The position numbers and the translations under genes were made by a program. Below are positions 1,193 through 12,069 of a stretch of 29,951 nt of DNA, piece after piece. Location of the stretch: NCBI GenBank assembly GCA_964576155.1, contig CAZNWW010000002.1, positions 1 through 29,951 on the forward strand, read 5' to 3'. Origin of the DNA: an uncultured Myxococcales bacterium. Its GTDB lineage: Bacteria; Myxococcota_A; UBA9042; CAIXZC01. The number at the start of each line of letters is the position of its first letter. The first letter of the stretch is position 1. The notes under the pieces were generated by a model, which searched no databases, was not told where the DNA came from, and saw nothing but the letters and a program-made list of their open reading frames with translations.

Positions 1193-1360
1193 CGTTGACC
1201 TCAATTCATGTCAGACATCTACCAAATCTACACGGTCAGGGGGGCGGTCGCCAGGGTTCATGAATCGAAGGGAGCCGTGGCAGCCCTATGCTCCTCTCCA
1301 TTGCATGGATCGCCTCTTGTCCGTAGGATTGACGCAATCGATCCCGCGCAGGAGCAAAAA

Positions 1361-3043
1361 ATGTCCCACGAGCCCGAGAAGATCATCTACTCCATGATGC
1401 GGGTGGGCAAGGTCCACGGCACGAAGCAGGTCCTCAAGGACATCTCGCTGTCCTACTTCTACGGGGCCAAGATCGGCGTCCTCGGGTTGAACGGCTCGGG
1501 GAAGAGCACCCTGCTCAAGATCATGGCTGGGATAGACACGGAGATTCTGGGCGAGACCGCGTGCGCGCCGGGATTCACAATCGGCTACCTGGAGCAAGAG
1601 CCCCTGGTGGATGAGGAGAAGACCATCCTCGAGGTGGTTCAGGAAGGCGCAGCGGAGACCATCGCCCTCCTGAAGGAGTTCGAAGACATCAGCATGTCCC
1701 TGGGGGAGCCCATGTCCGACGAGGAGATGGACAAGGCCATCAACCGACAGGGGGATCTCCAGGACAAGCTGGACGCGACGGACGCGTGGGACCTGGATAG
1801 CCGCCTCGACCAGGCCATGGACGCGCTGCGCTGCCCCCCGGGTGAGACCTCCGTGAAGATCCTCTCCGGCGGAGAGCGGCGCCGGGTGGCCCTCTGCCGG
1901 CTCCTCCTGCAGAAACCGGATATCCTGCTCCTGGACGAGCCCACCAACCACCTGGACGCGGAGACGGTCCATTGGCTGGAGCAGCACCTCCGCCGCTACG
2001 AGGGCACCGTCATCGCAGTGACCCATGATCGGTACTTCCTGGACAACGTGGCCGGCTGGATCCTGGAGCTGGATCGGGGCCACGGGATCCCGTGGAAGGG
2101 GAACTACTCCTCGTGGCTGGAGCAGAAGTCCCGCCGCCTGGCCCAGGAGGATCGTTCAGAGGACAAGCGCCTCCGAACCCTAGAGCGTGAGCTGGAGTGG
2201 GTCCGTCTGAGCCCCAAGGGCAGACGGGCCAAGGGCAAGGCCCGAATCAATGCCTACAACGACCTCCTCTCCCAGGAGATGGAGAAGCGTCAGGAGGACC
2301 TGGAGATCTTCATCCCCGCGGGACCCCGCCTGGGGGACATCGTCATCGACGCAGACGGCGTCCGCAAAGGCTTCGACGATCGGCTCCTGGTGGACGACAT
2401 GACCTTCCGGGTGCCCCCCGGCGCCATCGTGGGCATCGTCGGTCCCAACGGCGCAGGCAAGACGACCCTGTTCCGCATGATCACCGGAGAGCTGGCGCCC
2501 GACGCGGGGACCTTCCGTGTCGGCGAGACCGTTAGCCTCGCCTACGCGGATCAGATGCGCAGCAGCCTCGACGGAGAGATGACGGTCTACGAGGCGATCT
2601 CCGGCGGGAACGAGACGATCCAGCTCGGACGGTGGGAGGTCAACTCCCGGGCCTACGTGGCCCGGTTCAACTTCAACGGTGCGGACCAGCAGAAGCCGGT
2701 CTCCGCTATCTCAGGCGGAGAGCGCAACCGGGTCCACCTGGCCTGCATGCTCCGCCAGGGGGCCAACGTCCTACTCCTGGACGAGCCCACCAACGACTTG
2801 GACGTGAACACCCTGCGTGCCCTCGAGGACGGCCTCGGTGCCTTCGCTGGCTGTGCCCTGATCATCAGCCATGATCGGTGGTTCCTGGACCGGGTCTGCA
2901 CACACACCCTCGCGTTCGAGGGCGACAGCGAGACCCTCTGGTTCCCGGGGACCTGGACCGAGTACGACGAAGACCGTCGCCGACGCCTCGGCGCGGACGC
3001 AGACCGCCCGCACCGTATCCGCTACCGAACTCTGACGCGTTGA
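1361..3043 (+). CDS. ettA: Energy-dependent translational throttle protein EttA (ABC-F ATPase)
   Basis: Two ABC domains (GLNGSGKST/LSGGERRR/LLLDEPTNHLD and GPNGAGKTT/ISGGERNR/LLLDEPTNDLD), no TM segments, and the EttA-typical ELEWVR.SPKGR.AK linker. Start placed at ATG 1361 after AGGAG, giving 560 aa. Confidence 0.93.
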   Translation: MSHEPEKIIYSMMRVGKVHGTKQVLKDISLSYFYGAKIGVLGLNGSGKSTLLKIMAGIDTEILGETACAPGFTIGYLEQEPLVDEEKTILEVVQEGAAETIALLKEFEDISMSLGEPMSDEEMDKAINRQGDLQDKLDATDAWDLDSRLDQAMDALRCPPGETSVKILSGGERRRVALCRLLLQKPDILLLDEPTNHLDAETVHWLEQHLRRYEGTVIAVTHDRYFLDNVAGWILELDRGHGIPWKGNYSSWLEQKSRRLAQEDRSEDKRLRTLERELEWVRLSPKGRRAKGKARINAYNDLLSQEMEKRQEDLEIFIPAGPRLGDIVIDADGVRKGFDDRLLVDDMTFRVPPGAIVGIVGPNGAGKTTLFRMITGELAPDAGTFRVGETVSLAYADQMRSSLDGEMTVYEAISGGNETIQLGRWEVNSRAYVARFNFNGADQQKPVSAISGGERNRVHLACMLRQGANVLLLDEPTNDLDVNTLRALEDGLGAFAGCALIISHDRWFLDRVCTHTLAFEGDSETLWFPGTWTEYDEDRRRRLGADADRPHRIRYRTLTR

Positions 3044-4689
3044 GTGACGACGCTGCCTTCCTGACCCGGGCGGAGGACGACTACTACGGGGCGGGCGTCG
3101 TCGGGCCAGGTCAGCTCCAGGGCCTCAAGGGTTCCGTCCGGGCCGGCCCGTGGCACCAGGTACCCTTCGCCACAGGGGTGGGCTCGCCCGATCTCCACGT
3201 CCGTCCCCATGGTCAGGAACATTCGGATCAGGTCCTCCTCCAGCCATCCCGGCGGGAGGTCGAGACGCATGGTCCCCGGCGCGGAGCGCACGATGTCGGG
3301 CACCGGGCCGGGCCCGAAGGGCTCCGAGGAGGTAGTCACGAGATGGGTGCGGAGGCCGTCGGCTCCGTGGAGCAGGCGCAGGCGCTGTCCAGTGTGGGCC
3401 GCAATGAACGGCAGGTTGACCAGGTAGAGATCCTGGTCGCCATCCCGCACCTCAGGGGCCACTTCGAGCACCCGCTGTGCGATCTCACGGTTGCGGGCTT
3501 CGAGGCTGTGATAGGTGAAAAAACCCTGGAGTGCGTGGGCCCCGAAGAGGAGGACCGTTGCGATGAAGAAGAACGTCCGCAGGCGGGGACGCGGGATCCA
3601 TAGCAGGATGCCCGCAGCAAGGACTGCTACTCCTACGTTAGAGAGGTAGGTGTAATGGTTGGACGCCATGAGGGGGAGGGTCGGGATCAGGCCCGCCGCG
3701 GTCCAGGCCAGCCAGGCAGGGGTGCCAGGAGCCCGGCGAAGGATCCGGGCCACCGCGATCCAGCCGGCAATGGTCATCCCGGCGACGGCGGCGAGGGCCA
3801 GGGGCGTCTTGTAGAGAAATGCCACCGGCGCTACGGGCATTATCGGCACGGAGACGAGCCACGCGAAGTAGTAGTAGACGAGCTTTACCGCAGCGAAGGC
3901 TGGGAAGTCCGGGTCCGTCGGTGAGATGTAGTAGGGCTTGGGCGGGTGGGACCCCAGACCCATGACGCCCAACCGAAGTCCGAGATAGAGGACCGTGAGG
4001 AGGACGACCGGCCAGAGTCGGGCAGCGGCTTCACGGATGACCTTCGACACCGGGAGTCCGGGCTCCCGCCGCATCCATTCGATCAGTACGAGGAACACCG
4101 GAAGGGTCACCGCTCCCTCTTTGGTAAAAAAAGCAGCCGCCGCGCAGGCGAGCGAGCCCAGCCGCGCAGGGACGGAGCGGTCCCCGTCCAGGGCGCGGGC
4201 GTGGAGGAGGAGTGCTCCCAGGACAAAGGTCGCCATGAGCACCTCGGTCCGTCCCGAGATCCAGAGCACCGCAACGGTGTGATGCGGGAAGGCTGCGAAG
4301 AGGCAGGCAGCCAGGAGCGCATGCCCGGGTCCGATGCCCAGGCGCAGCAGGAGGCGCCGTACCATCACCGCGTTCAGACAGTGGAGCGCCAGATTGGTCA
4401 GGTGGTAGCCGAAGGCCGTGAATCCCCACACGGCGTGGTCCAGCTTGAGGCTCAATACGAAGAGGGGACGCAGGAAACGCACGGGCTCCTGGTCGAGGCA
4501 CCAGACCTCGATGGTGGCCGGGTCGAACACGGAGAATCCCTGCGCCAGCCCCTGTAGGCTCCAGGGCGCGGTCAGGGCCCTCTCGAGGTTGTGGAGGTCA
4601 TCCAGGAAGAAGCCGAGGGCGAGGGCGCACGCCCAGAAGAGGAGCGCCACTCCGAGGACGACCAGATCTTCGTTCGCAGGACGCTTCAT
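3022..4689 (-). CDS. GT-C-fold polytopic membrane glycosyltransferase-like protein (TMTC/PMT-like membrane core, no TPRs), paralogue 2
   Basis: Acidic FLDD motif after TM1; RPLFVLSLKLDHAVWG..AFGYHLTNLALH; LFAAFPHH..AVLWISGR; FTKEGA. About 11-13 hydrophobic segments followed by a soluble C-terminal domain. Confidence 0.72.
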   Translation of the reverse strand: MKRPANEDLVVLGVALLFWACALALGFFLDDLHNLERALTAPWSLQGLAQGFSVFDPATIEVWCLDQEPVRFLRPLFVLSLKLDHAVWGFTAFGYHLTNLALHCLNAVMVRRLLLRLGIGPGHALLAACLFAAFPHHTVAVLWISGRTEVLMATFVLGALLLHARALDGDRSVPARLGSLACAAAAFFTKEGAVTLPVFLVLIEWMRREPGLPVSKVIREAAARLWPVVLLTVLYLGLRLGVMGLGSHPPKPYYISPTDPDFPAFAAVKLVYYYFAWLVSVPIMPVAPVAFLYKTPLALAAVAGMTIAGWIAVARILRRAPGTPAWLAWTAAGLIPTLPLMASNHYTYLSNVGVAVLAAGILLWIPRPRLRTFFFIATVLLFGAHALQGFFTYHSLEARNREIAQRVLEVAPEVRDGDQDLYLVNLPFIAAHTGQRLRLLHGADGLRTHLVTTSSEPFGPGPVPDIVRSAPGTMRLDLPPGWLEEDLIRMFLTMGTDVEIGRAHPCGEGYLVPRAGPDGTLEALELTWPDDARPVVVVLRPGQEGSVVTQRVRVR

Positions 4690-6383
4690 GGACCGCAGAG
4701 CCGGTGAACCAGGGGGCCTTCGCCGGTATCGTAGAACGAGTAGATCCGGATACGCTCGGCATCCAGGGACTCGTCGAACCGCAGCTCCAAGGCGTCGACC
4801 TGGTCTTCAGTCCATCGTGGCGTCGCGGTCAGCCCGGGCACGTTGCGGTAGCTCCGGCCGGGGACGAGGGGTATCCGGAACAGGTGCACGTTCCATTCCT
4901 CCGGTGTCTCGAAGAGTGCCCGGTGTCCCGGAGGGGGACCGATGAGTACCGCATAGGGAGAGAGGCACTCGACCGTGGGGCCCTTGGTGGGGGTCTCCCA
5001 TTCCGGGGTGAACGTACCGAGGGTGGCCTGGATGTCGCCGTGTCCCGCGCGGAGTCGCAGGTGGGAGGCCACGTGGGACGCAGCCACGGTGAGGTTCACC
5101 AGGACGAGATGCGTCCCCTCGGATGGTGAACCGCCGATATCCCGCTCGATGTCCTCCATGGCCGTACGGTCCACGACGCCCTGCATGTGATAGAGGAGGC
5201 CACGCCCCGTGAACCCCACGAGGTAGAAGCAGACCAGGACGACCAGGGCGATTCGGCGCCGGCGGGTCGGTCGAGCGAGCGCGGCTGCCAGGATAAATGC
5301 GAAGCCTATTCCCGGAAAGTACAGATAGAGATCCGACGCCAGGATCGGCAGGGTAGGGAGGAAGGCCGCGGCCATCCAGAACCCACCGAAATAGCGACCT
5401 CGCTGTCCCTGTCCGGCGCGGTGTACGCCCACCGCAATCAGCACTGTGAGCAGCACCACACCAACGATCAGCCCGGGGTGCTCCAGGAGGAAGGCCGTGC
5501 CGAAGATCGGGACGACCGGCGCCATGGTGAGCACCGCGGCCGAGTAATGCGCCAGCTTCGCAACCGCGAAGGCCGCGAAGCCGGGATCTGTCGGCGCGGT
5601 GAAGTACGGCTCGGAGAGGGTCCCGGCGGAATCGAACAAGAGCAGGCGGTACGCGGTGAAGGCCACCAGAAGGGTTGCGAGGGGCAGGAGCGCGATCAAC
5701 GAACCGCGCCACCGGGTTCGAATCGGTCCGGGGCCCTCGAGGATCTCATAGAAGGCCGCCAGAATCCCCACCAGGACTGCGCTCTCTTTGGTGAGGCAGG
5801 CCAGCGCGGTGAAGAGCAGGGCCCAGCCCTGCAGCGTCGGACGGCGGGTCTGACGGGCGGTTACGTAGCTAAGAAGCGCAGCGACCATCCACATGGCGGC
5901 CATGCTCGTGGTCCTGCCCGCGGTCCAGCAGACCGCGGCGACGTTGTGTGGTTGGATGGCGAAGAGGATCGCAGCGATCCGCCCGAGGCGGTCGTTCCCG
6001 GAGATCCTGGTTGCGAGCTGCCCCACGAGGATCACGGTCACGAGATGCATGGCAAGGTTGATGGCGTGGTACCCGAAGGGCGCCAAACCCCATAAGGCCA
6101 GGTCCACCTTGAACGAAGCCATCACCAGCGGCCGGAAGTAGTGGTAGGCCGGCGCCGCGGGGAGGTTCCAGGTCGAGATGGACGTCGGGTCGAGGAAGGT
6201 GAAGGCGTCCCGGAGTCCCTCCCAGGTCCAAGGGGCCTGGGAGGCCCTCCAGAGCAGGTGCCAGTCGTCCAGGAACATGGGACTGGCAATCCAAGGGGCG
6301 CACGCGACCGCTGCCAGGACCATTGCCGGCCACGCGCGCAGGACAGCAGCTCGAAAACCGTGGGTCGGGACGCCACCCGTCAC
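4686..6383 (-). CDS. GT-C-fold polytopic membrane glycosyltransferase-like protein, paralogue 1
   Basis: Same motif series as the neighbour: MFLDDW; YFRPLVMASFKVDLALWGLAPFGYHAINLAMH; LFAIQPHNVAAVCWTAGR; LTKESA. Start and stop overlap both neighbours by 4 bp. Confidence 0.72.
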   Translation of the reverse strand: MTGGVPTHGFRAAVLRAWPAMVLAAVACAPWIASPMFLDDWHLLWRASQAPWTWEGLRDAFTFLDPTSISTWNLPAAPAYHYFRPLVMASFKVDLALWGLAPFGYHAINLAMHLVTVILVGQLATRISGNDRLGRIAAILFAIQPHNVAAVCWTAGRTTSMAAMWMVAALLSYVTARQTRRPTLQGWALLFTALACLTKESAVLVGILAAFYEILEGPGPIRTRWRGSLIALLPLATLLVAFTAYRLLLFDSAGTLSEPYFTAPTDPGFAAFAVAKLAHYSAAVLTMAPVVPIFGTAFLLEHPGLIVGVVLLTVLIAVGVHRAGQGQRGRYFGGFWMAAAFLPTLPILASDLYLYFPGIGFAFILAAALARPTRRRRIALVVLVCFYLVGFTGRGLLYHMQGVVDRTAMEDIERDIGGSPSEGTHLVLVNLTVAASHVASHLRLRAGHGDIQATLGTFTPEWETPTKGPTVECLSPYAVLIGPPPGHRALFETPEEWNVHLFRIPLVPGRSYRNVPGLTATPRWTEDQVDALELRFDESLDAERIRIYSFYDTGEGPLVHRLCGP

Positions 6384-7765
6384 GTGGTTCGTCCCCGCCT
6401 ACCGACATCGGTCACGAGGGCCGCCAGGGTCTCCTCGTACCGATCGGCCAGTCCCGCGATCATGGGTGTGTCCACCATGCTCGCCTTGTGATTGAAGTTG
6501 AAGCAGAGGCGGCCGCCGTACCGGATCACCGTCGTGTTGACGCCCTGGAGCCATGCACAGGGGGTCATGATTCGGAGATCCTCACCGATCCAACGGCGGG
6601 TCCCGAGCCGGCCCCCGTTCTCCGAGGGTGAGATAGCGACGAGGTTGCTGAACGGGAAGTTGAGCATGGTCCGCTTCGGTGCGAACACCGCCTGTCGGAT
6701 CCGGCCAAGCGGCATCAGGCGGGCGACCAGGATCTCGGCGAGGACCTTGGTGATGTGATCCCGCCGCCGGGCCTGCCGGTGGATCTGTCTGCGCAGGCTG
6801 TCCAGGAGATCCAGCGGACCGCTGTAGCGATCCATGTGGAAGTCGACAAGGAAGGACGAGAGGTGATTGGCGAAGGACTCCATGGTCCACGGCCGCGGAC
6901 GGACGTCCGCAGGGATCAGGAGGTTGAAGCGGCGAACCGGGTGTCCGTGGTCGCCGCTCCAACCGGCGAGGGCCAGCGCCAGGGCCGACGAGAGGACATC
7001 GTTGGTGGAGACCCCGGCGGCGCCTCGGAGCGCGCCGATCCCGGAGATCTCCTCCGGCTCCATCCAACGGTGATGGACCTGGTTGTGGCCCGTGTAGTCG
7101 CCGGGGAGGTTGCTCACGAGCTGGTCCGGGGGCCACAGGGAGTAGCGAATGATGTTCCTCATATGCAGGAAGGTCCCGATGAACCGTGCGCCGAAGCGCC
7201 GCAGGGCGCTCGGCTCCGCGACCACCGCCTCCGGGATCCGCTGGATGGGCTCGATCTCCTCAGGAAGCGTCCCCTCCGCAGCCTGATCGTAGAAGGCGCA
7301 GAAGTCCTCGAGGCAACGCCAGAAGGCCCGACCGTCTGCGATTCCATGGTGCTGCTGGAACATCAGCACGCCGCGGGATCCGCTGCGTCGCACCCAGGTG
7401 ATCCGGGCGGGGTAGTCCGTCGACATGTCGATGTAATGGTCGAAGATCTCCTGCTGGACTGCGGGGAACTGCGCTTCATCGCCGGTGAGATCCACGACCC
7501 GGAAGAGATCGTCGAGTCGGGGCGTTGGGTCGACCTCGTACACAATGCGCCGGGAGGCCTCCAGGGTGTTGCCGTCCTTCACCGGCACAGCGCGGGAGAC
7601 CAGGACCGGATAGCGCCGGGCCAGCACGGCCACGGTCCGTCGGGTGATGTCTTCGTCCAGATCCCCGTCTATGTGGAGCTGCCACACCGGTGCGGAGGAG
7701 ATCCCGTGCTCTCGGCTGGTGGCCGCAAGACAGATCGTGTCGAGATAGTCGAACGGGAATCGCAT
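6380..7765 (-). CDS. Stand-alone condensation-domain / CoA-dependent acyltransferase (HHxxxDG)
   Basis: FQQHHGIADGRAF catalytic motif; typical second-half features (STNDVLSSALALAL, IPADVRPR, FANHLS, NFPFSNL). 461 aa with no adenylation or carrier domain. Confidence 0.82.
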   Translation of the reverse strand: MRFPFDYLDTICLAATSREHGISSAPVWQLHIDGDLDEDITRRTVAVLARRYPVLVSRAVPVKDGNTLEASRRIVYEVDPTPRLDDLFRVVDLTGDEAQFPAVQQEIFDHYIDMSTDYPARITWVRRSGSRGVLMFQQHHGIADGRAFWRCLEDFCAFYDQAAEGTLPEEIEPIQRIPEAVVAEPSALRRFGARFIGTFLHMRNIIRYSLWPPDQLVSNLPGDYTGHNQVHHRWMEPEEISGIGALRGAAGVSTNDVLSSALALALAGWSGDHGHPVRRFNLLIPADVRPRPWTMESFANHLSSFLVDFHMDRYSGPLDLLDSLRRQIHRQARRRDHITKVLAEILVARLMPLGRIRQAVFAPKRTMLNFPFSNLVAISPSENGGRLGTRRWIGEDLRIMTPCAWLQGVNTTVIRYGGRLCFNFNHKASMVDTPMIAGLADRYEETLAALVTDVGRRGRTT

Positions 7766-7778
7766 AGGCTTGGAATCA

Positions 7779-8831
7779 TTACGGCAGCAAGTGGTGGGCG
7801 AAGTCCAACAGGATCTTGTACGAGGGCCCGTCGAAGCCCCCCTCTACGATGGCCATGACACCGAAGCAGAGCGTGCCCCCGAGGACCGACGCCCAGGCCA
7901 CCCGCAGAAAGAGCTCCCAGTTTCGCCGCTGCGGCGTCAGATCATCCCGGTCCTGAAGCGCGAAGACGAAATACGAGAACGGGAGGAACGCGCCGAACCA
8001 GGCGGCGTAGTTGAGCACAGGGACACCCAGGAGCAGGGCGGGGAGAGTTTCGTTCCACTGCCAGAACACCCCGGACATGGACGCCAGCGGGTCGAGCTGA
8101 GCGTCCATGCTGAGGGCCAGGGCCGTGGTGACCACGGCCCGGCGCCATGCGTTGACTTTGAGCCAGGGGATCCACTCAGCGAGCTGCTCTACGAGCACGA
8201 TGGTGATGTAGAAGACCAGGCTCCAGCCGAGCATGGTGCAGAGTGGTGCCGGCAAGGGGCCCAGGTAGAGGCGGAAGCTGGGCTCGGAGAAGAAGCCCAT
8301 GATGATCCCCGTGTTCTCGAGGATCAGGCCGTATAGGAAGGTGACCCCGAAGAACATCAGGAAGCCATGCCAGCCGCGGGTAAGGACCACGTGCGCGACA
8401 AAGATCAGGACCCAGAAGAACTGGGTCCCCTCGAAGAGGGTCGTGAGCGCGTCGTGGGAGAGCGGATGGGGTCGGTGGAGCAAGGTGACCAGGAGCGGAA
8501 AGCCCACAGCGAGGCCGGCCAGGGCCGCGTAGGCCTTCCATCGATTATCGAGGCGCCCGGAGCGCCGGACCCGCAGCACGAAGAAGAACACGAACCACGC
8601 CATGGGGAACGCAATGGTGGGCACGAAGTCCATGCGGGACAGGCCCAGTGCAGAGAAACCATCCTGAGGGAAGTTGGCCAGAGCCGCGTGCAGAAGTCCC
8701 ACTGCAGAGAGGAAGATGAACCAGACTGGCATGAATCGCAGGAACTCGTCCTTGAGGCCGGCGGCCGAGACGATGTTGGGCTGCGCCCGGGAATCGGGCA
8801 TTGCGAAAGTGCCGGTGTCCGTGTTCTCCAA
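7779..8831 (-). CDS. CruF-like (carotenoid biosynthesis protein / DUF422-type) membrane hydratase with extra N-terminal TM region
   Basis: LYGLILENTG..G, LGPLPAPLC.MLGW, ALSMDAQLDPLA....FWQW and GVPVLNYAAWF match the CruF family pattern. Start is TTG 8831 or ATG 8801. Confidence 0.75.
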   Translation of the reverse strand: MENTDTGTFAMPDSRAQPNIVSAAGLKDEFLRFMPVWFIFLSAVGLLHAALANFPQDGFSALGLSRMDFVPTIAFPMAWFVFFFVLRVRRSGRLDNRWKAYAALAGLAVGFPLLVTLLHRPHPLSHDALTTLFEGTQFFWVLIFVAHVVLTRGWHGFLMFFGVTFLYGLILENTGIIMGFFSEPSFRLYLGPLPAPLCTMLGWSLVFYITIVLVEQLAEWIPWLKVNAWRRAVVTTALALSMDAQLDPLASMSGVFWQWNETLPALLLGVPVLNYAAWFGAFLPFSYFVFALQDRDDLTPQRRNWELFLRVAWASVLGGTLCFGVMAIVEGGFDGPSYKILLDFAHHLLP

Positions 8832-8863
8832 GGCATCCCCCCCAAAGAAGAAACGTTCCCGTA

Positions 8864-8893
8864 TTTATACTGGAAAGGGGTGACTCGAATCAA
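8864..8893 (-). promoter_or_regulatory. Putative sigma70-type promoter for the CruF-like/acyltransferase/GT-C operon
   Basis: Minus strand reads TTGATT-N18-TATAAA in the AT-rich gap between the rSAM stop (8905) and the next start (8831). Confidence 0.4.
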
Positions 8894-8904
8894 GTGGATG
8901 GTCG

Positions 8905-9969
8905 TTATCCGGAGAGGTCCTTGTAGTGGCAGCGGACCGGGCCGCCGGTCTCGGGATCGTAGAGGTGGAGTGAGTTACCCTGGCACCGCTTCCATTCCCG
9001 GCAGACCGCGCACTCGCCTTTGCGTAGCCAGGATCGGTCGCGGTAGGGCTCGAAGCCTTCTTCCCAGATCGTCATGAGATCATCGGTGCGGACGTTGCCC
9101 TGGACCAGGGCCCTGTCGATGTTCGGACAGGCCGAGATAGCGCCGTCGTGGAGCACCGAAGCGATGCAGATCCCGGCGCGGCAGAAGTAGGGCTCGTCAC
9201 GGACGGCGCGGTCCACTGCGGGGGGGAGATAGCCCTCGCAACAGAAGTCGGGATGGAGAGCCTCCGTCCTTCGACGGGACGCGATCCAGTCCATGAGGCG
9301 CCCCAAGCCATCCGCGTCGAAGATGAGCTCCTCGTCCTCCCTGGCACGGCCCTTGGGGAAGATCGGGAAGATACGCCAGCGGCGGACGCCGACGTCATGA
9401 AGGAGGTCTCGGAGGTCGTCGAGCTCACTGAGGTTCCCGGGGAAAGTACAGGTGACCACGTCGAGGGCCGTGGCGCGGAGCTCCACCAGGTGCCGGAGTC
9501 CATCGATTGCTCGGCGCCAGGAACCCTCTCGACCCCGGAAAACATCATGGGTCGCTTCGAGACCGTCGATGCTCAGGGTGACGCTCTTCATGCCCAGGCT
9601 GAGGAGGGTCTGGGCCCGCTCCCGGGTCAGTGGCCAGCCGTTGGTCACCATCCCCCAGGGGATGCTACGGGTCTGTATCCTGCCGACGATTGCGCCGAGG
9701 TCGGAGTGGCAGAGGGGCTCACCGCCGGTGATCACGATTTGGAGGCCCTCACGGGGCGCGGTGTCGGCTACCTTGTCGATGACCTGGAGCCATTCTTCGG
9801 TGTTCAATGCTCCGGTGCGAGCGTCAGCGCTGCAGTCGCTGCCGCAATGACGGCAGTCGAGGTTGCAGACCTGCGTGATTTCCAGAAAGAGATACCGCAG
9901 GGGATGGACCTTGGACTCCAGATGTCGGTAGACGGGATGGACGATGCGCCGGAGGGACGGCGGGCTCAC
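8905..9969 (-). CDS. Radical SAM/SPASM enzyme, rSAM/lipoprotein-system type (TIGR04133-like)
   Basis: CNLDCRHCGSDC (CxxxCxxC), ITGGEP, VTNG, LSIDG. SPASM cysteines in FCRAGI...DGAISACP and CAVCREWKRCQGNSLH...C. The YRDRSW..KGEC segment is as I recall it from TIGR04133 members. GTG start overlaps the upstream TGA. Confidence 0.9.
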   Translation of the reverse strand: MSPPSLRRIVHPVYRHLESKVHPLRYLFLEITQVCNLDCRHCGSDCSADARTGALNTEEWLQVIDKVADTAPREGLQIVITGGEPLCHSDLGAIVGRIQTRSIPWGMVTNGWPLTRERAQTLLSLGMKSVTLSIDGLEATHDVFRGREGSWRRAIDGLRHLVELRATALDVVTCTFPGNLSELDDLRDLLHDVGVRRWRIFPIFPKGRAREDEELIFDADGLGRLMDWIASRRRTEALHPDFCCEGYLPPAVDRAVRDEPYFCRAGICIASVLHDGAISACPNIDRALVQGNVRTDDLMTIWEEGFEPYRDRSWLRKGECAVCREWKRCQGNSLHLYDPETGGPVRCHYKDLSG

Positions 9970-10163
9970 TCTTTGGCGGCGTCAGGGGCGAGGAGATTCC
10001 CCGCCTTGATGTCATTCGCCGGGGCCTCCTTGCCGTCCTTTTTAGTGTCCCCCTGTAGCGGTAACGTATCCTCGGGGTAGTACTGAGGACCGTAGCAGGC
10101 CGCCAGGATCACGGGACTGATGACACAGATGGCACCCAGGAGCAGCTTATGGATCCGCTTCAC
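9966..10163 (-). CDS. Small lipoprotein with Cys-Tyr-Gly at the lipobox; probable rSAM substrate (TIGR04134-like, minimal)
   Basis: GGAGG RBS then GTG; basic N-terminus, hydrophobic stretch, lipobox ILAA-C23, then YGPQYYP. The mature part is 43 aa, hydrophilic and low-complexity. 4-bp overlap with the rSAM gene. Confidence 0.82.
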   Translation of the reverse strand: MKRIHKLLLGAICVISPVILAACYGPQYYPEDTLPLQGDTKKDGKEAPANDIKAGNLLAPDAAKE

Positions 10164-10281
10164 GTGAATCCTCCGAGATCGGGCTGACGTTCAACATAAC
10201 GAAATCGCTCCTTGGTGATCCCCGCAACCTCTTTGGACTCCCGGACCCGGGACGCCTACACTCTCCCAGCGGAGGTTGTCC

Positions 10282-12069
10282 ATGAATCGTTCGACCGAAC
10301 TGCTGACCGTTTCTTCGATTGGGATGGTCTTGCTCCTCGTCGTGGGGGTCCTGTGGATGGACGCCTGCACCATCGAAGAGGAGGCCCCCAAGCAGCACGA
10401 TGTGCTCGACCCCTCGGATGTGATCGATGAGGACGCGTCTTCACCCGACATCATCGAGGTGCCGCCGGAGTGTGGAGACGGGATCTGTGACTTGGCCGAG
10501 GACTGCCTGACTTGCACCGATGATTGCGCCTGCGCCGAGCTGGCTGCGACCCCTCCCATGGGCTGGAACTCCTGGAACCTCTTCGCGTGTGACATCGACG
10601 AGGCGCTCGTCAGGGAGATTGCGGACGCGATGGTCGGCAGCGGGATGAAAGACGCTGGCTACGAGTACGTGAACCTGGACGACTGCTGGCAGACGGACCG
10701 GGATGAGGACGGCGTCATCGTCACGGATCCGGAGCGCTTCCCGGGCGGCATAGCGGCGCTGGCAGAATACGTCCACGAGCGGGGCCTCAAGTTCGGCATC
10801 TACACCTGCGCCGGGACGCTCACCTGCGAAGGTCGGCCCGGCAGCTTCGGCTATGAGGCCCAGGACATGCAGACCTACGCAGATTGGGGCGTGGATCTCG
10901 TAAAGGTGGACTGGTGTTACACCGATGGTCTGGACTCCGCGGAGCGCTATGAGCTGTTCCGGGACGGCATCCTCGCATCAGGACGGGAGATCCTGTTGAG
11001 CATCTGCAACTGGGGCTACCAGGAGCCATGGGTCTGGGGGCCGCAGACCGGGCAGATGTGGCGGACCTCGATGGACATCAAGGATGGGTTTTTGCCGTTG
11101 ATGTTCAACCTCAAGGCCGTGGAACCCCTGGCAGCCTTTGCCGGGCCCGGCCGCTGGAATGATCCCGACATGCTCGAGGTAGGGAACGGCGGCATGACCG
11201 ACGACCTCTACCGCGCCCACTTCGGGCTGTGGGCCATGCTCGCTGCCCCTCTTATAGCGGGCAACGATCTGCGAGACATGTCCCCAGCGACCCTGAAGAT
11301 CCTCACCAATCCGGAGGTCATCGCAGTAGACAAAGATCCCGCGGGTCTGCAAGCGGTGCTCCTCAGGGTGACCGACGATGTCCGGGTCTACGCACGACCG
11401 CTCACCGAGGACGGGTTGCGGGCCGTGCTCTTCTTCAACACCTCCCAGGACGTTGCCCGGACAGCGTCCATCACCTGGGACGAGTTGGGATTGTTCCAGG
11501 GTACGGCTTCGGTCCGGGATCTCCTTGCGCAGGAAGAGCTCGGTGCGTTCGTCGACCATTTCGACGCTGACATTCCGTCTATGAGCGCAGTGATGGTCAC
11601 CATCCGAGGCACGGAGCCCCTGCCCGGCGTTGGCATCCAGTACCTCTCTGATCTCCCGTTGAAGTACGCAGCGTCCTATGGCGGCCTGGTCGCGCTTGAC
11701 CGTGGGTTCAGCCTCGAGGATGAGGCGCCTGGTCCGATTATTACGCTGGGCGAGCAGGTCCACGAGAAGGGCCTCGGCGTCCCTGGTGGATCCGTGGTCG
11801 TGGTACACCTGGGAGGTCGCTGCGACATCTTCGAGGCGACCCTGGGGCTCACGAGCAACGCCGGCCCCGAGGGATCCGTGGTCTTCGAGGTCTGGGGCGA
11901 CGGGGTTCGCATCTGGTCGAGCGACGTGGTCACCGTCGACACCGAACCCAAACCCATCCAGACCAGCATGAAGGGACGGCAGAATCTCAAGCTCGTCACG
12001 ACCCCGGCAGGTGATTCCACCACCGGCGATCGGGCCGCGTGGGCCCACGCACATCTCACCTGCGAATAG
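10282..12069 (+). CDS. GH27 alpha-galactosidase with N-terminal Cys-rich module and C-terminal NPCBM-like domain; probably membrane-anchored
   Basis: TPPMGWNSWN, YVNLDDCW, LVKVDWC (nucleophile Asp), MWRTSMDI (acid/base Asp), GRWNDPDMLEVGNG, APLIAGNDLR. C-terminal YLSDL...KGLGV...FEVWGDG...TGDRAAWA resembles NPCBM/NEW2. Start at ATG 10282 after GGAGG. Confidence 0.88.
   Translation: MNRSTELLTVSSIGMVLLLVVGVLWMDACTIEEEAPKQHDVLDPSDVIDEDASSPDIIEVPPECGDGICDLAEDCLTCTDDCACAELAATPPMGWNSWNLFACDIDEALVREIADAMVGSGMKDAGYEYVNLDDCWQTDRDEDGVIVTDPERFPGGIAALAEYVHERGLKFGIYTCAGTLTCEGRPGSFGYEAQDMQTYADWGVDLVKVDWCYTDGLDSAERYELFRDGILASGREILLSICNWGYQEPWVWGPQTGQMWRTSMDIKDGFLPLMFNLKAVEPLAAFAGPGRWNDPDMLEVGNGGMTDDLYRAHFGLWAMLAAPLIAGNDLRDMSPATLKILTNPEVIAVDKDPAGLQAVLLRVTDDVRVYARPLTEDGLRAVLFFNTSQDVARTASITWDELGLFQGTASVRDLLAQEELGAFVDHFDADIPSMSAVMVTIRGTEPLPGVGIQYLSDLPLKYAASYGGLVALDRGFSLEDEAPGPIITLGEQVHEKGLGVPGGSVVVVHLGGRCDIFEATLGLTSNAGPEGSVVFEVWGDGVRIWSSDVVTVDTEPKPIQTSMKGRQNLKLVTTPAGDSTTGDRAAWAHAHLTCE

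Follow-up and report, generated by a model that had tools for sequence, protein, structure and literature searches.

A conserved cassette of a CruF-like protein, a predicted acyltransferase and paired GT-C glycosyltransferases in uncultured marine Myxococcota may tailor a membrane lipid

ArnT and RgtA-D are glycosyltransferases of the GT-C type that act on lipid A and the core of lipopolysaccharide (LPS), using undecaprenyl- or dodecaprenyl-phosphate sugars. In Rhodothermus, Salinibacter, Chlorobi and cyanobacteria, a carotenoid acyl-glycoside pathway runs through CruF, CruC/CruG and CruD (PMC7414004), and His-dependent acyltransferases of the HxxxD/HHxxxDG superfamily acylate the sugars of glycolipids (PMC10619693). 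In the synthesis of phosphatidylinositol mannosides (PIM), PatA acylates at the cytoplasmic face, and the GT-C enzyme PimE then glycosylates outside (PMC8519569; bioRxiv 10.1101/2024.09.17.613550, PMC12041525). TMTC proteins have 11 transmembrane helices, a cytoplasmic N-terminus and a C-terminal domain outside (PMC7801869). Here, we analyzed a stretch of 29,951 nucleotides (the window) from an uncultured Myxococcales bacterium (GCA_964576155.1, contig CAZNWW010000002.1, positions 1-29,951 of the forward strand; genome G000), which carries at 3022-8831 a cassette of four genes for a CruF-like membrane protein, a condensation-type acyltransferase and two GT-C glycosyltransferases. Our preferred reading, to which we give a probability of roughly 0.4 as a whole, is that the four genes form a self-contained operon, predicted to be one transcript unit and vertically inherited within uncultured marine Myxococcota, and that they tailor a membrane-embedded amphiphile across the inner membrane, which would be acylated inside, flipped, hydrated and glycosylated.

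The four open reading frames (ORFs) lie on the minus strand and comprise 350, 461, 565 and 555 codons. Gene 1 (7779-8831) encodes P0004, a 350-residue protein of the CruF family (PF04240), and gene 2 (6380-7765) encodes P0003, a stand-alone HHxxxDG acyltransferase of 461 residues. Gene 3 (4686-6383) and gene 4 (3022-4689) encode the GT-C proteins P0002 (565 residues, 'first' orthogroup) and P0001 (555 residues, 'second' orthogroup). When the junctions were read from the sequence, the TAA of gene 1 was followed after a 13-nt gap by the ATG of gene 2, while genes 2 and 3 overlapped in GTGA and genes 3 and 4 in ATGA, which confirms the arrangement of one 13-bp gap and two 4-bp overlaps given in an earlier note on this DNA. 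No terminator-like site was found between the four genes, and all listed sites fall inside coding sequence.

The putative promoter TTGATT-N18-TATAAA named in that note is likewise present upstream of gene 1, on the minus strand at 8864-8893 (read from 8893 to 8864). It was unlisted in a strict sigma-70 consensus scan because its second hexamer has A as the last base. A G-rich, ribosome-binding-like run, GGGGGGG, lies on the same strand at 8837-8843, 5 nt ahead of the TTG start at 8831. We compared this region with two related loci, L001 and L006, and found that a block of the form CTTG...GTATAAATACGGGAACG...GGGGGGG..GCCTTGGAG is kept in all three. All three loci retain the -10-like block with the CTTG of the -35-like block, and they do not differ in the GGGGGGG run or in GCCTTGGAG. 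The DNA beyond the block is unrelated, being the end of a radical S-adenosylmethionine (rSAM) gene in the window and intergenic in L001 and L006. Conservation of the block despite unrelated DNA beyond it supports a dedicated promoter for the cassette, together with a candidate G-rich ribosome site and a TTG start at 8831.

The combination of gene families was conserved elsewhere. The same four families were found in at least seven loci, the window among them, at 43-88% identity and with unrelated flanks, and the core in at least nine. The four genes are adjacent and in the same order in the window, L001/G040 (79-88% identity), L006, L008/G237 (45-59%), L009 and L059 (44-61%), and L057 also has them side by side, with the CruF-like gene placed last rather than first. 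In genome G264 the three downstream genes lie on a short contig, and a CruF-like fragment lies at the end of another contig. Shorter forms, counted as two to four further loci, consist of the acyltransferase with both GT-Cs (L004/L005 and L007) or with one GT-C (L002/L003 and the distant L058). In L058 the acyltransferase is 38% identical, and the adjoining GT-C aligns along its whole length with the family profile (hhalign probability 99.7%). All acyltransferase relatives of at least 37% identity that could be examined adjoin a GT-C of this family, and no other gene common to nine loci was found in an all-against-all comparison. Since the same families recur in at least nine independent loci with different flanks, the arrangement is not due to chance.

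Relatives of the cassette were found only in metagenome-assembled genomes (MAGs) or metagenome contigs of uncultured Myxococcota, mostly Myxococcales/Polyangia. Two carrier MAGs are labelled Pseudomonadota and Rickettsiales, and genome placement assigns them to the window's genus and phylum. The source DNA runs come from marine, seawater and hydrothermal-vent metagenomes. Of 401 sampled genomes of the phylum, four, belonging to two genera, carried the cassette-type acyltransferase and seven carried the CruF-like subfamily. When 185,579 species genomes were scanned by pattern, four loci were found beyond the window's own genome. We searched the literature on PF04240, TIGR04133, hydroxyarchaeol hydratase and GT-C enzymes with condensation-type acyltransferases, and this cassette is undescribed there, as the earlier note had presumed when it did not recognize the combination from any described cluster. 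All the enzyme kinds are known; what is undescribed is the gene combination, a TMTC-like GT-C branch bearing a beta-sandwich, and a CruF-family member in a carotenoid-free genus.

The two GT-C proteins are paralogs with 33% identity. Neither of them matched Pfam, including PMT_2 (PF13231) and the TPR, DUF1736 and MIR domains, whereas 18 of 80 aligned GT-C relatives matched PMT_2 (best E 1.7e-11). P0002 had 24,788 matches across the superfamily, just 21 of them at E<=1e-30, and consists of an 11-helix TMTC/PMT_2-like domain and a C-terminal periplasmic domain, with invariant DD, RP and KE. The AF2 model of P0001 (predicted local distance difference test score, pLDDT, 95.1; predicted template-modelling score, pTM, 0.94) has the DD motif at residues 30-31 and a C-terminal beta-sandwich of about 135 residues at about 420-552. 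Among 80 relatives of P0001, D30, D31, R74, P75 and E191 are invariant. Sequence searches of the PDB gave nothing useful, and Foldseek against the PDB returned STT3, PglB, AglB, AftD, AftA, Pmt4 and ArnT, all of them GT-C enzymes, with probability 1.0. Among Swiss-Prot models, TMTC1-4 ranked at the top (E 3.5e-10 to 9e-8, template-modelling (TM) score 0.51-0.56, residues 1-445). An ESM-Atlas feature search with the C-terminal domain returned unnamed Myxococcota clusters only. The GT-C fold and DD motif claimed for both paralogs are thus upheld by the model, the fold matches and the invariance of the motif. By this modelled fold, genes 3 and 4 are paralogous GT-C enzymes, and the fold suggests that they use polyprenyl-phosphate sugars.

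TMTC1-4, PMT and TMEM260 are the best structural match, sharing the 11-helix core, DD in the first outer loop, a conserved loop between helices 7 and 8, and a C-terminal domain outside. The cassette enzymes differ from them in carrying the beta-sandwich in place of TPR or MIR domains, in having no Pfam match, and in always occurring with a cytoplasmic acyltransferase. Membership in the TMTC family proper was rejected, as TPR and DUF1736 are absent and a C-terminal beta-sandwich is present instead; the proteins are TMTC-like in fold. ArnT and RgtA-D, which are also bacterial GT-Cs with a periplasmic C-terminal domain and are among the fold matches, are a weaker structural match than TMTC, and the cassette is without the ArnC/RgtE-type GT2, deformylase and flippase genes.

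In a phylogenetic tree, the 'first' and 'second' GT-Cs formed two well-supported orthogroups with the same internal branching, and support for 'first' was 100/100. The congruence of the two trees indicates joint inheritance of the pair. L002 has a single GT-C, which falls within the 'second' (P0001-type) orthogroup, among loci with both GT-Cs, and therefore the four-gene form is probably ancestral, with the shorter forms probably reduced by loss. In L057, the first GT-C gene (6393-8414) carries about 76 extra codons, inserted in frame between the stretches that match P0002 residues 360 and 362. A split of this gene by frameshift was considered and rejected, as the insertion lies within a single ORF.

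P0003, the product of gene 2, carries HHGIADG at residues 139-145. H140, D144 and G145 are invariant in 36 relatives, and H139 is kept in at least 90%. It matches PF00668 at E 1.3e-7 and 31.2 bits, narrowly above the cut-off of 30.6, and shows weak WS_DGAT_C and PapA_C matches in Pfam. Its ESM-Atlas features match stand-alone condensation-domain clusters at 0.99, and no signal peptide or transmembrane segment was found in its sequence. Scores against TIGR02946, the wax ester synthase/diacylglycerol acyltransferase (WS/DGAT) model (E 2.6e-11, 43 bits versus a cut-off of 310), and against PapA5 (NF006787; E 8e-9, 35 bits versus 396) are far under both family cut-offs, and orthology with either enzyme was ruled out. 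The motif, the PF00668 match and the invariant residues bear out the proposed condensation-type acyltransferase, and its description as a soluble stand-alone O-acyltransferase of condensation/WS-DGAT/PapA5-like type, a predicted activity, appears largely right. PapA5, PapA1-3, WS/DGAT and fungal MAC share with it the stand-alone two-lobed type and the catalytic His, and members of this group acylate lipid alcohols or the sugars of glycolipids. Gene 2 differs from PapA5 and WS/DGAT in its low scores, in having no polyketide synthase, fatty acyl-AMP ligase or MmpL neighbor, and in its GT-C partner. Homologs of 29-35% identity in about 20 genomes of the phylum stand alone without conserved neighbors and gave no hint of function.

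P0004, the product of gene 1, matches PF04240 (Caroten_synth) of Pfam at residues 143-317 with 50.9 bits versus a cut-off of 25 (E 2.5e-13; profile positions 13-184 of 209), and with 52.7 bits in the genome scan. It is a long form with about nine transmembrane helices, about three of which are extra at the N-terminus. E134, E172, N173, E183, D243, Q245, D247, W257 and W259 are invariant in its family (42 sequences, 32-86% identical). The AF2 model (pLDDT 92.8) matched PF04240 clusters of the ESM-Atlas at TM scores of 0.52-0.89, reaching 0.89 for a Myxococcota cluster and 0.52/0.57 for a Bacteroidota cluster, while AveC_like (spirocyclase/dehydratase) clusters matched more weakly at 0.48/0.61. 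Foldseek with this model gave nothing significant against the PDB and Swiss-Prot models, and no solved structure of the PF04240 family for comparison was found by Foldseek or VIA-align. The best VIA-align match was a mycobacterial Insig homolog (Z 7.7, below the tool's reliable level), followed by resistance-nodulation-division (RND) and sterol-sensing transporters (Z 4-5.6), which are middling helical-bundle matches also below that level. Of the structure comparison proposed in the earlier note, the GT-C part stood, with TMTC, ArnT and PMT matched, as did the placement of gene 1 with PF04240 clusters of the Atlas, but the CruF-like model had no match in the PDB or Swiss-Prot. Taken together, the PF04240 match and the Atlas fold match agree with the CruF-family call, and the view of P0004 as a divergent, long-form CruF-family membrane protein is probably largely right.

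CruF-like relatives also occur outside the cassette, in two cases with a FadL-like channel and a TSP3 protein as neighbors and in one case with an MMPL transporter. In L051 (1-3035), a stand-alone relative with 73% identity lies about 5 kb from genes for a FadL-like (Toluene_X) outer-membrane channel and a TSP3_bac protein on the same contig. In L052 (4351-7950), a relative with 60% identity directly adjoins genes of these same two kinds, with an MMPL/sterol-sensing transporter directly after, and ceramidase and aminotransferase genes upstream. Because CruF-like relatives elsewhere adjoin such lipid-transport genes (MMPL, FadL-like), a lipid context for the cassette is suggested.

Topology was predicted by the positive-inside rule from loop charges averaged over family alignments. 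The GT-Cs are predicted to have 11 transmembrane helices with the N-terminus inside, and the DD loop, the loop between helices 7 and 8 and the C-terminal domain outside; by the averaged charges, the DD loop is net acidic and the flanking loops are K/R-rich. In the CruF-like protein, K/R-rich loops alternate with acidic ones, and the conserved Glu/Asp/Trp cluster is predicted to be periplasmic. The acyltransferase is thus predicted to be the only cytoplasmic enzyme of the four, with the other three active sites in the periplasm. This topology speaks against the order of hydration, glycosylation and acylation that the earlier note had proposed. A cytoplasmic acyltransferase and three periplasmic sites make it likely that acylation comes first, followed by flipping, and then hydration and glycosylation. 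Moreover, both the minimal and the full forms of the cassette join cytoplasmic acyl transfer with steps at the outer face, which suggests that the shared substrate is embedded in the membrane and crosses it.

In the pathway that we propose, the product of gene 2 would esterify a hydroxyl group, either on a lipid or on the lipid's head group, at the cytoplasmic face, taking the acyl group from acyl-CoA or an acyl-carrier thioester with His140 as base, and the acylated product would then move to the outer leaflet. The product of gene 1 would hydrate an isolated C=C through acid/base catalysis by its intramembrane cluster of Glu and Asp residues, which lies close to the periplasmic surface, or may alternatively remove water. 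Genes 3 and 4 would each add one sugar from a polyprenyl-phosphate-sugar donor, and the C-terminal beta-sandwich of the GT-Cs may position the acceptor. The scaffold would most likely be an envelope lipid that is olefinic or hydroxylated, of the polyprenyl type or another. The logic resembles that of PIM synthesis, in which cytoplasmic acylation, flipping and outer-face glycosylation by a GT-C also act on the same glycolipid, but PatA belongs to another acyltransferase family, and with no homology beyond the GT-C fold the likeness is an analogy of mechanism only.

Several observations weigh against this reading. The CruF-like gene is missing beside the core in L002, L004, L007 and L058, and its family is also found alone in other genomes. 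The GT-Cs' nearest characterized relatives (TMTC, PMT and TMEM260) act on proteins, not on lipids. In the cassette, no GT2 polyprenyl-phosphate-sugar synthase, flippase, acyl-activating enzyme or lipid-backbone gene was found. The topology is itself a prediction from the positive-inside rule, and substrates, donors, step order and product are what we infer. A complex prediction for the acyltransferase and P0001's membrane domain (residues 1-420) scored 0.00, which speaks neither way. More doubtful, and offered tentatively, is the further step that marine Myxococcota use the cassette to make envelope acyl-glycolipids of a new class. In this case a CruF-family enzyme would act at the outer leaflet on a lipid other than a carotenoid, such as a polyprenyl chain at its omega-end, and a dedicated TMTC-like GT-C pair would glycosylate a small lipid and not a protein.

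The predicted topology also agrees with a scheme in which the acyltransferase acylates a polyprenyl-phosphate-sugar and, after flipping, the GT-Cs pass the acyl-sugar to a periplasmic protein, lipoprotein, LPS or polysaccharide. Such a scheme would explain the strict pairing of cytoplasmic and periplasmic enzymes in the two-gene form and, by drawing on the cell's general donor pool, the lack of a backbone gene in the cassette; the genome also holds two further members of the GT-C superfamily. However, it offers no natural role for the CruF-like protein of the probably ancestral four-gene form, and no GT-C is described as using an acylated donor in the literature searched. We consider it improbable.

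Protein O-glycosylation would follow the nearest folds, which are protein O-mannosyltransferases. Here the GT-Cs would modify envelope proteins, possibly an rSAM-associated lipoprotein, and the acyltransferase and the CruF-like protein would have a side function. A candidate acceptor lies next to the cassette, where a TIGR04133-like rSAM/SPASM enzyme (P0005; minus strand, 8905-9969; E 8e-114, 380 bits, under the cut-off of 425) is preceded by a 65-residue lipoprotein with lipobox ILAA-C (minus strand, 9966-10163), whose stop overlaps the rSAM start in GTGA. In two independent lineages, that of the window and L006 and that of the distant L058, such a pair precedes the cassette by no more than 2 kb. 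As the rSAM family occurs in just 51 of 401 genomes of the phylum, two independent co-localizations deserve notice. The lipoprotein is 74% identical in L006, where an opposite-strand gene lies between the pair and the cassette, and L058 has a 60-residue lipobox ORF at the same position. Against this, most cassette loci are without the pair: it is absent at the cassettes of L001, L002, L004, L007, L008, L009, L057 and L059, and G040, from the same genus, has no rSAM ortholog at its cassette and only a paralog of 34% identity elsewhere. The cassette also keeps its own conserved promoter-like element. Furthermore, the GT-Cs carry no TPR or MIR protein-binding domain, and the obligate cytoplasmic acyltransferase partner would be unexplained. 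We therefore regard the rSAM pair as probably a separate unit with a possible, loose link to the cassette, and protein O-glycosylation as having about as small a chance as transfer of an acylated sugar.

A carotenoid or other C30/C40 isoprenoid scaffold, hydrated by a CruF-type enzyme, glycosylated and acylated as in salinixanthin- or myxol-type acyl glycosides, is suggested by the PF04240 membership of gene 1 and the known CruF-CruC-CruD logic (PMC7414004). As in that pathway, the cassette combines a PF04240 membrane protein with one sugar-transfer and one acyl-transfer function on a lipid. The known route uses cytoplasmic GT-A/GT2 enzymes and the acyltransferase CruD, whereas the cassette is predicted to use periplasm-facing GT-Cs that would need lipid-phosphate-sugar donors, and an acyltransferase of the condensation/WS-DGAT/PapA5 type. 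The cassette also differs in its divergent long PF04240 protein with three extra N-terminal helices, in the step order suggested by topology, which places acylation on the wrong side of the membrane for this route, and in having no crtB or crtI found in the genus. No match to PF00494, the family of phytoene, dehydrosqualene and squalene synthases, was found in the three genomes of the window's genus (G000, 84% complete; G040, 95%; G264, 89%), while control genomes were detected as expected, and no CrtI above the family cut-off was found in these three genomes. The check for crtB and crtI suggested in the earlier note thus came out negative, and the C30/C40 scaffold it had considered is not supported. 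In our reading, neither carotenoids nor squalene derivatives form the scaffold in this genus.

One cassette carrier, G237, does have a phytoene/squalene synthase (PSY) and three CrtI genes. It also has a separate PF04240 gene that scores 115 bits versus about 47 bits for the cassette copy, and therefore the cassette protein represents a distinct subfamily and not the ordinary CruF of the genome. A carotenoid route is accordingly very improbable. Two stretches matching PF04240 are separated by about 300 bp within G237:C1:1297-2774, and the one scoring 115 bits belongs to an open frame of 1333 codons that may encode a fusion protein. The window's genus has a full-length CrtI-family-like flavoprotein below the cut-off (G000:C346, at L060 2307-3845; G040:C57; G264:C189), with 81-85% identity across the three genomes. 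A CrtI-family-like gene 6 kb from the G237 cassette was dropped as a lead, as the CrtI-like genes of the window's genus are just 31-34% identical to it. Finally, that the four genes are merely neighbors without a shared pathway is hardly credible: the CruF-like family does also occur alone, but the genes are translationally coupled, recur in at least nine loci with unrelated flanks and one rearranged order, and have congruent GT-C trees.

Other features around the cassette were recorded. The rSAM/lipoprotein pair spans 8905-10163 (minus strand) in the window, 3683-4958 in L006 and 5010-6307 in L058, with lipoproteins of 60-68 residues. The mature lipoprotein peptides start with CYGP(Q/M)YYPED in the window and L006, and with CGEPAPKYG in L058. 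A GH27 alpha-galactosidase gene with a C-terminal NPCBM domain (plus strand, 10276-12069) diverges from the cluster and occupies the same position in L001 and L006, but not in the more distant cassette loci. At the other end, a convergent gene for an ABC-F type ATPase with two ABC_tran domains (1208-3043) overlaps the 3'-end of the last GT-C gene by 22 bp (3022-3043), and this neighbor is also present in L001 and L006.

To our knowledge, PF04240 is annotated everywhere as 'carotenoid biosynthesis', and we know of no assigned acceptor for the bacterial TMTC-like GT-C proteins, members of a very large superfamily. The cassette gives both families defined, conserved partner genes in organisms that are apparently unable to make carotenoids, and it cautions against the automatic 'carotenoid' annotation of PF04240 proteins. 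Although its hosts are uncultured, with four genes, clear catalytic residues and a lipidomic read-out it offers a tractable way to learn what CruF-like proteins may do outside carotenoid synthesis and what a bacterial TMTC-like enzyme glycosylates. If the new acyl-glycolipid class that we offer tentatively is real, PF04240 would gain its first function apart from carotenoids, and the TMTC-like GT-C branch would gain a new class of acceptor.

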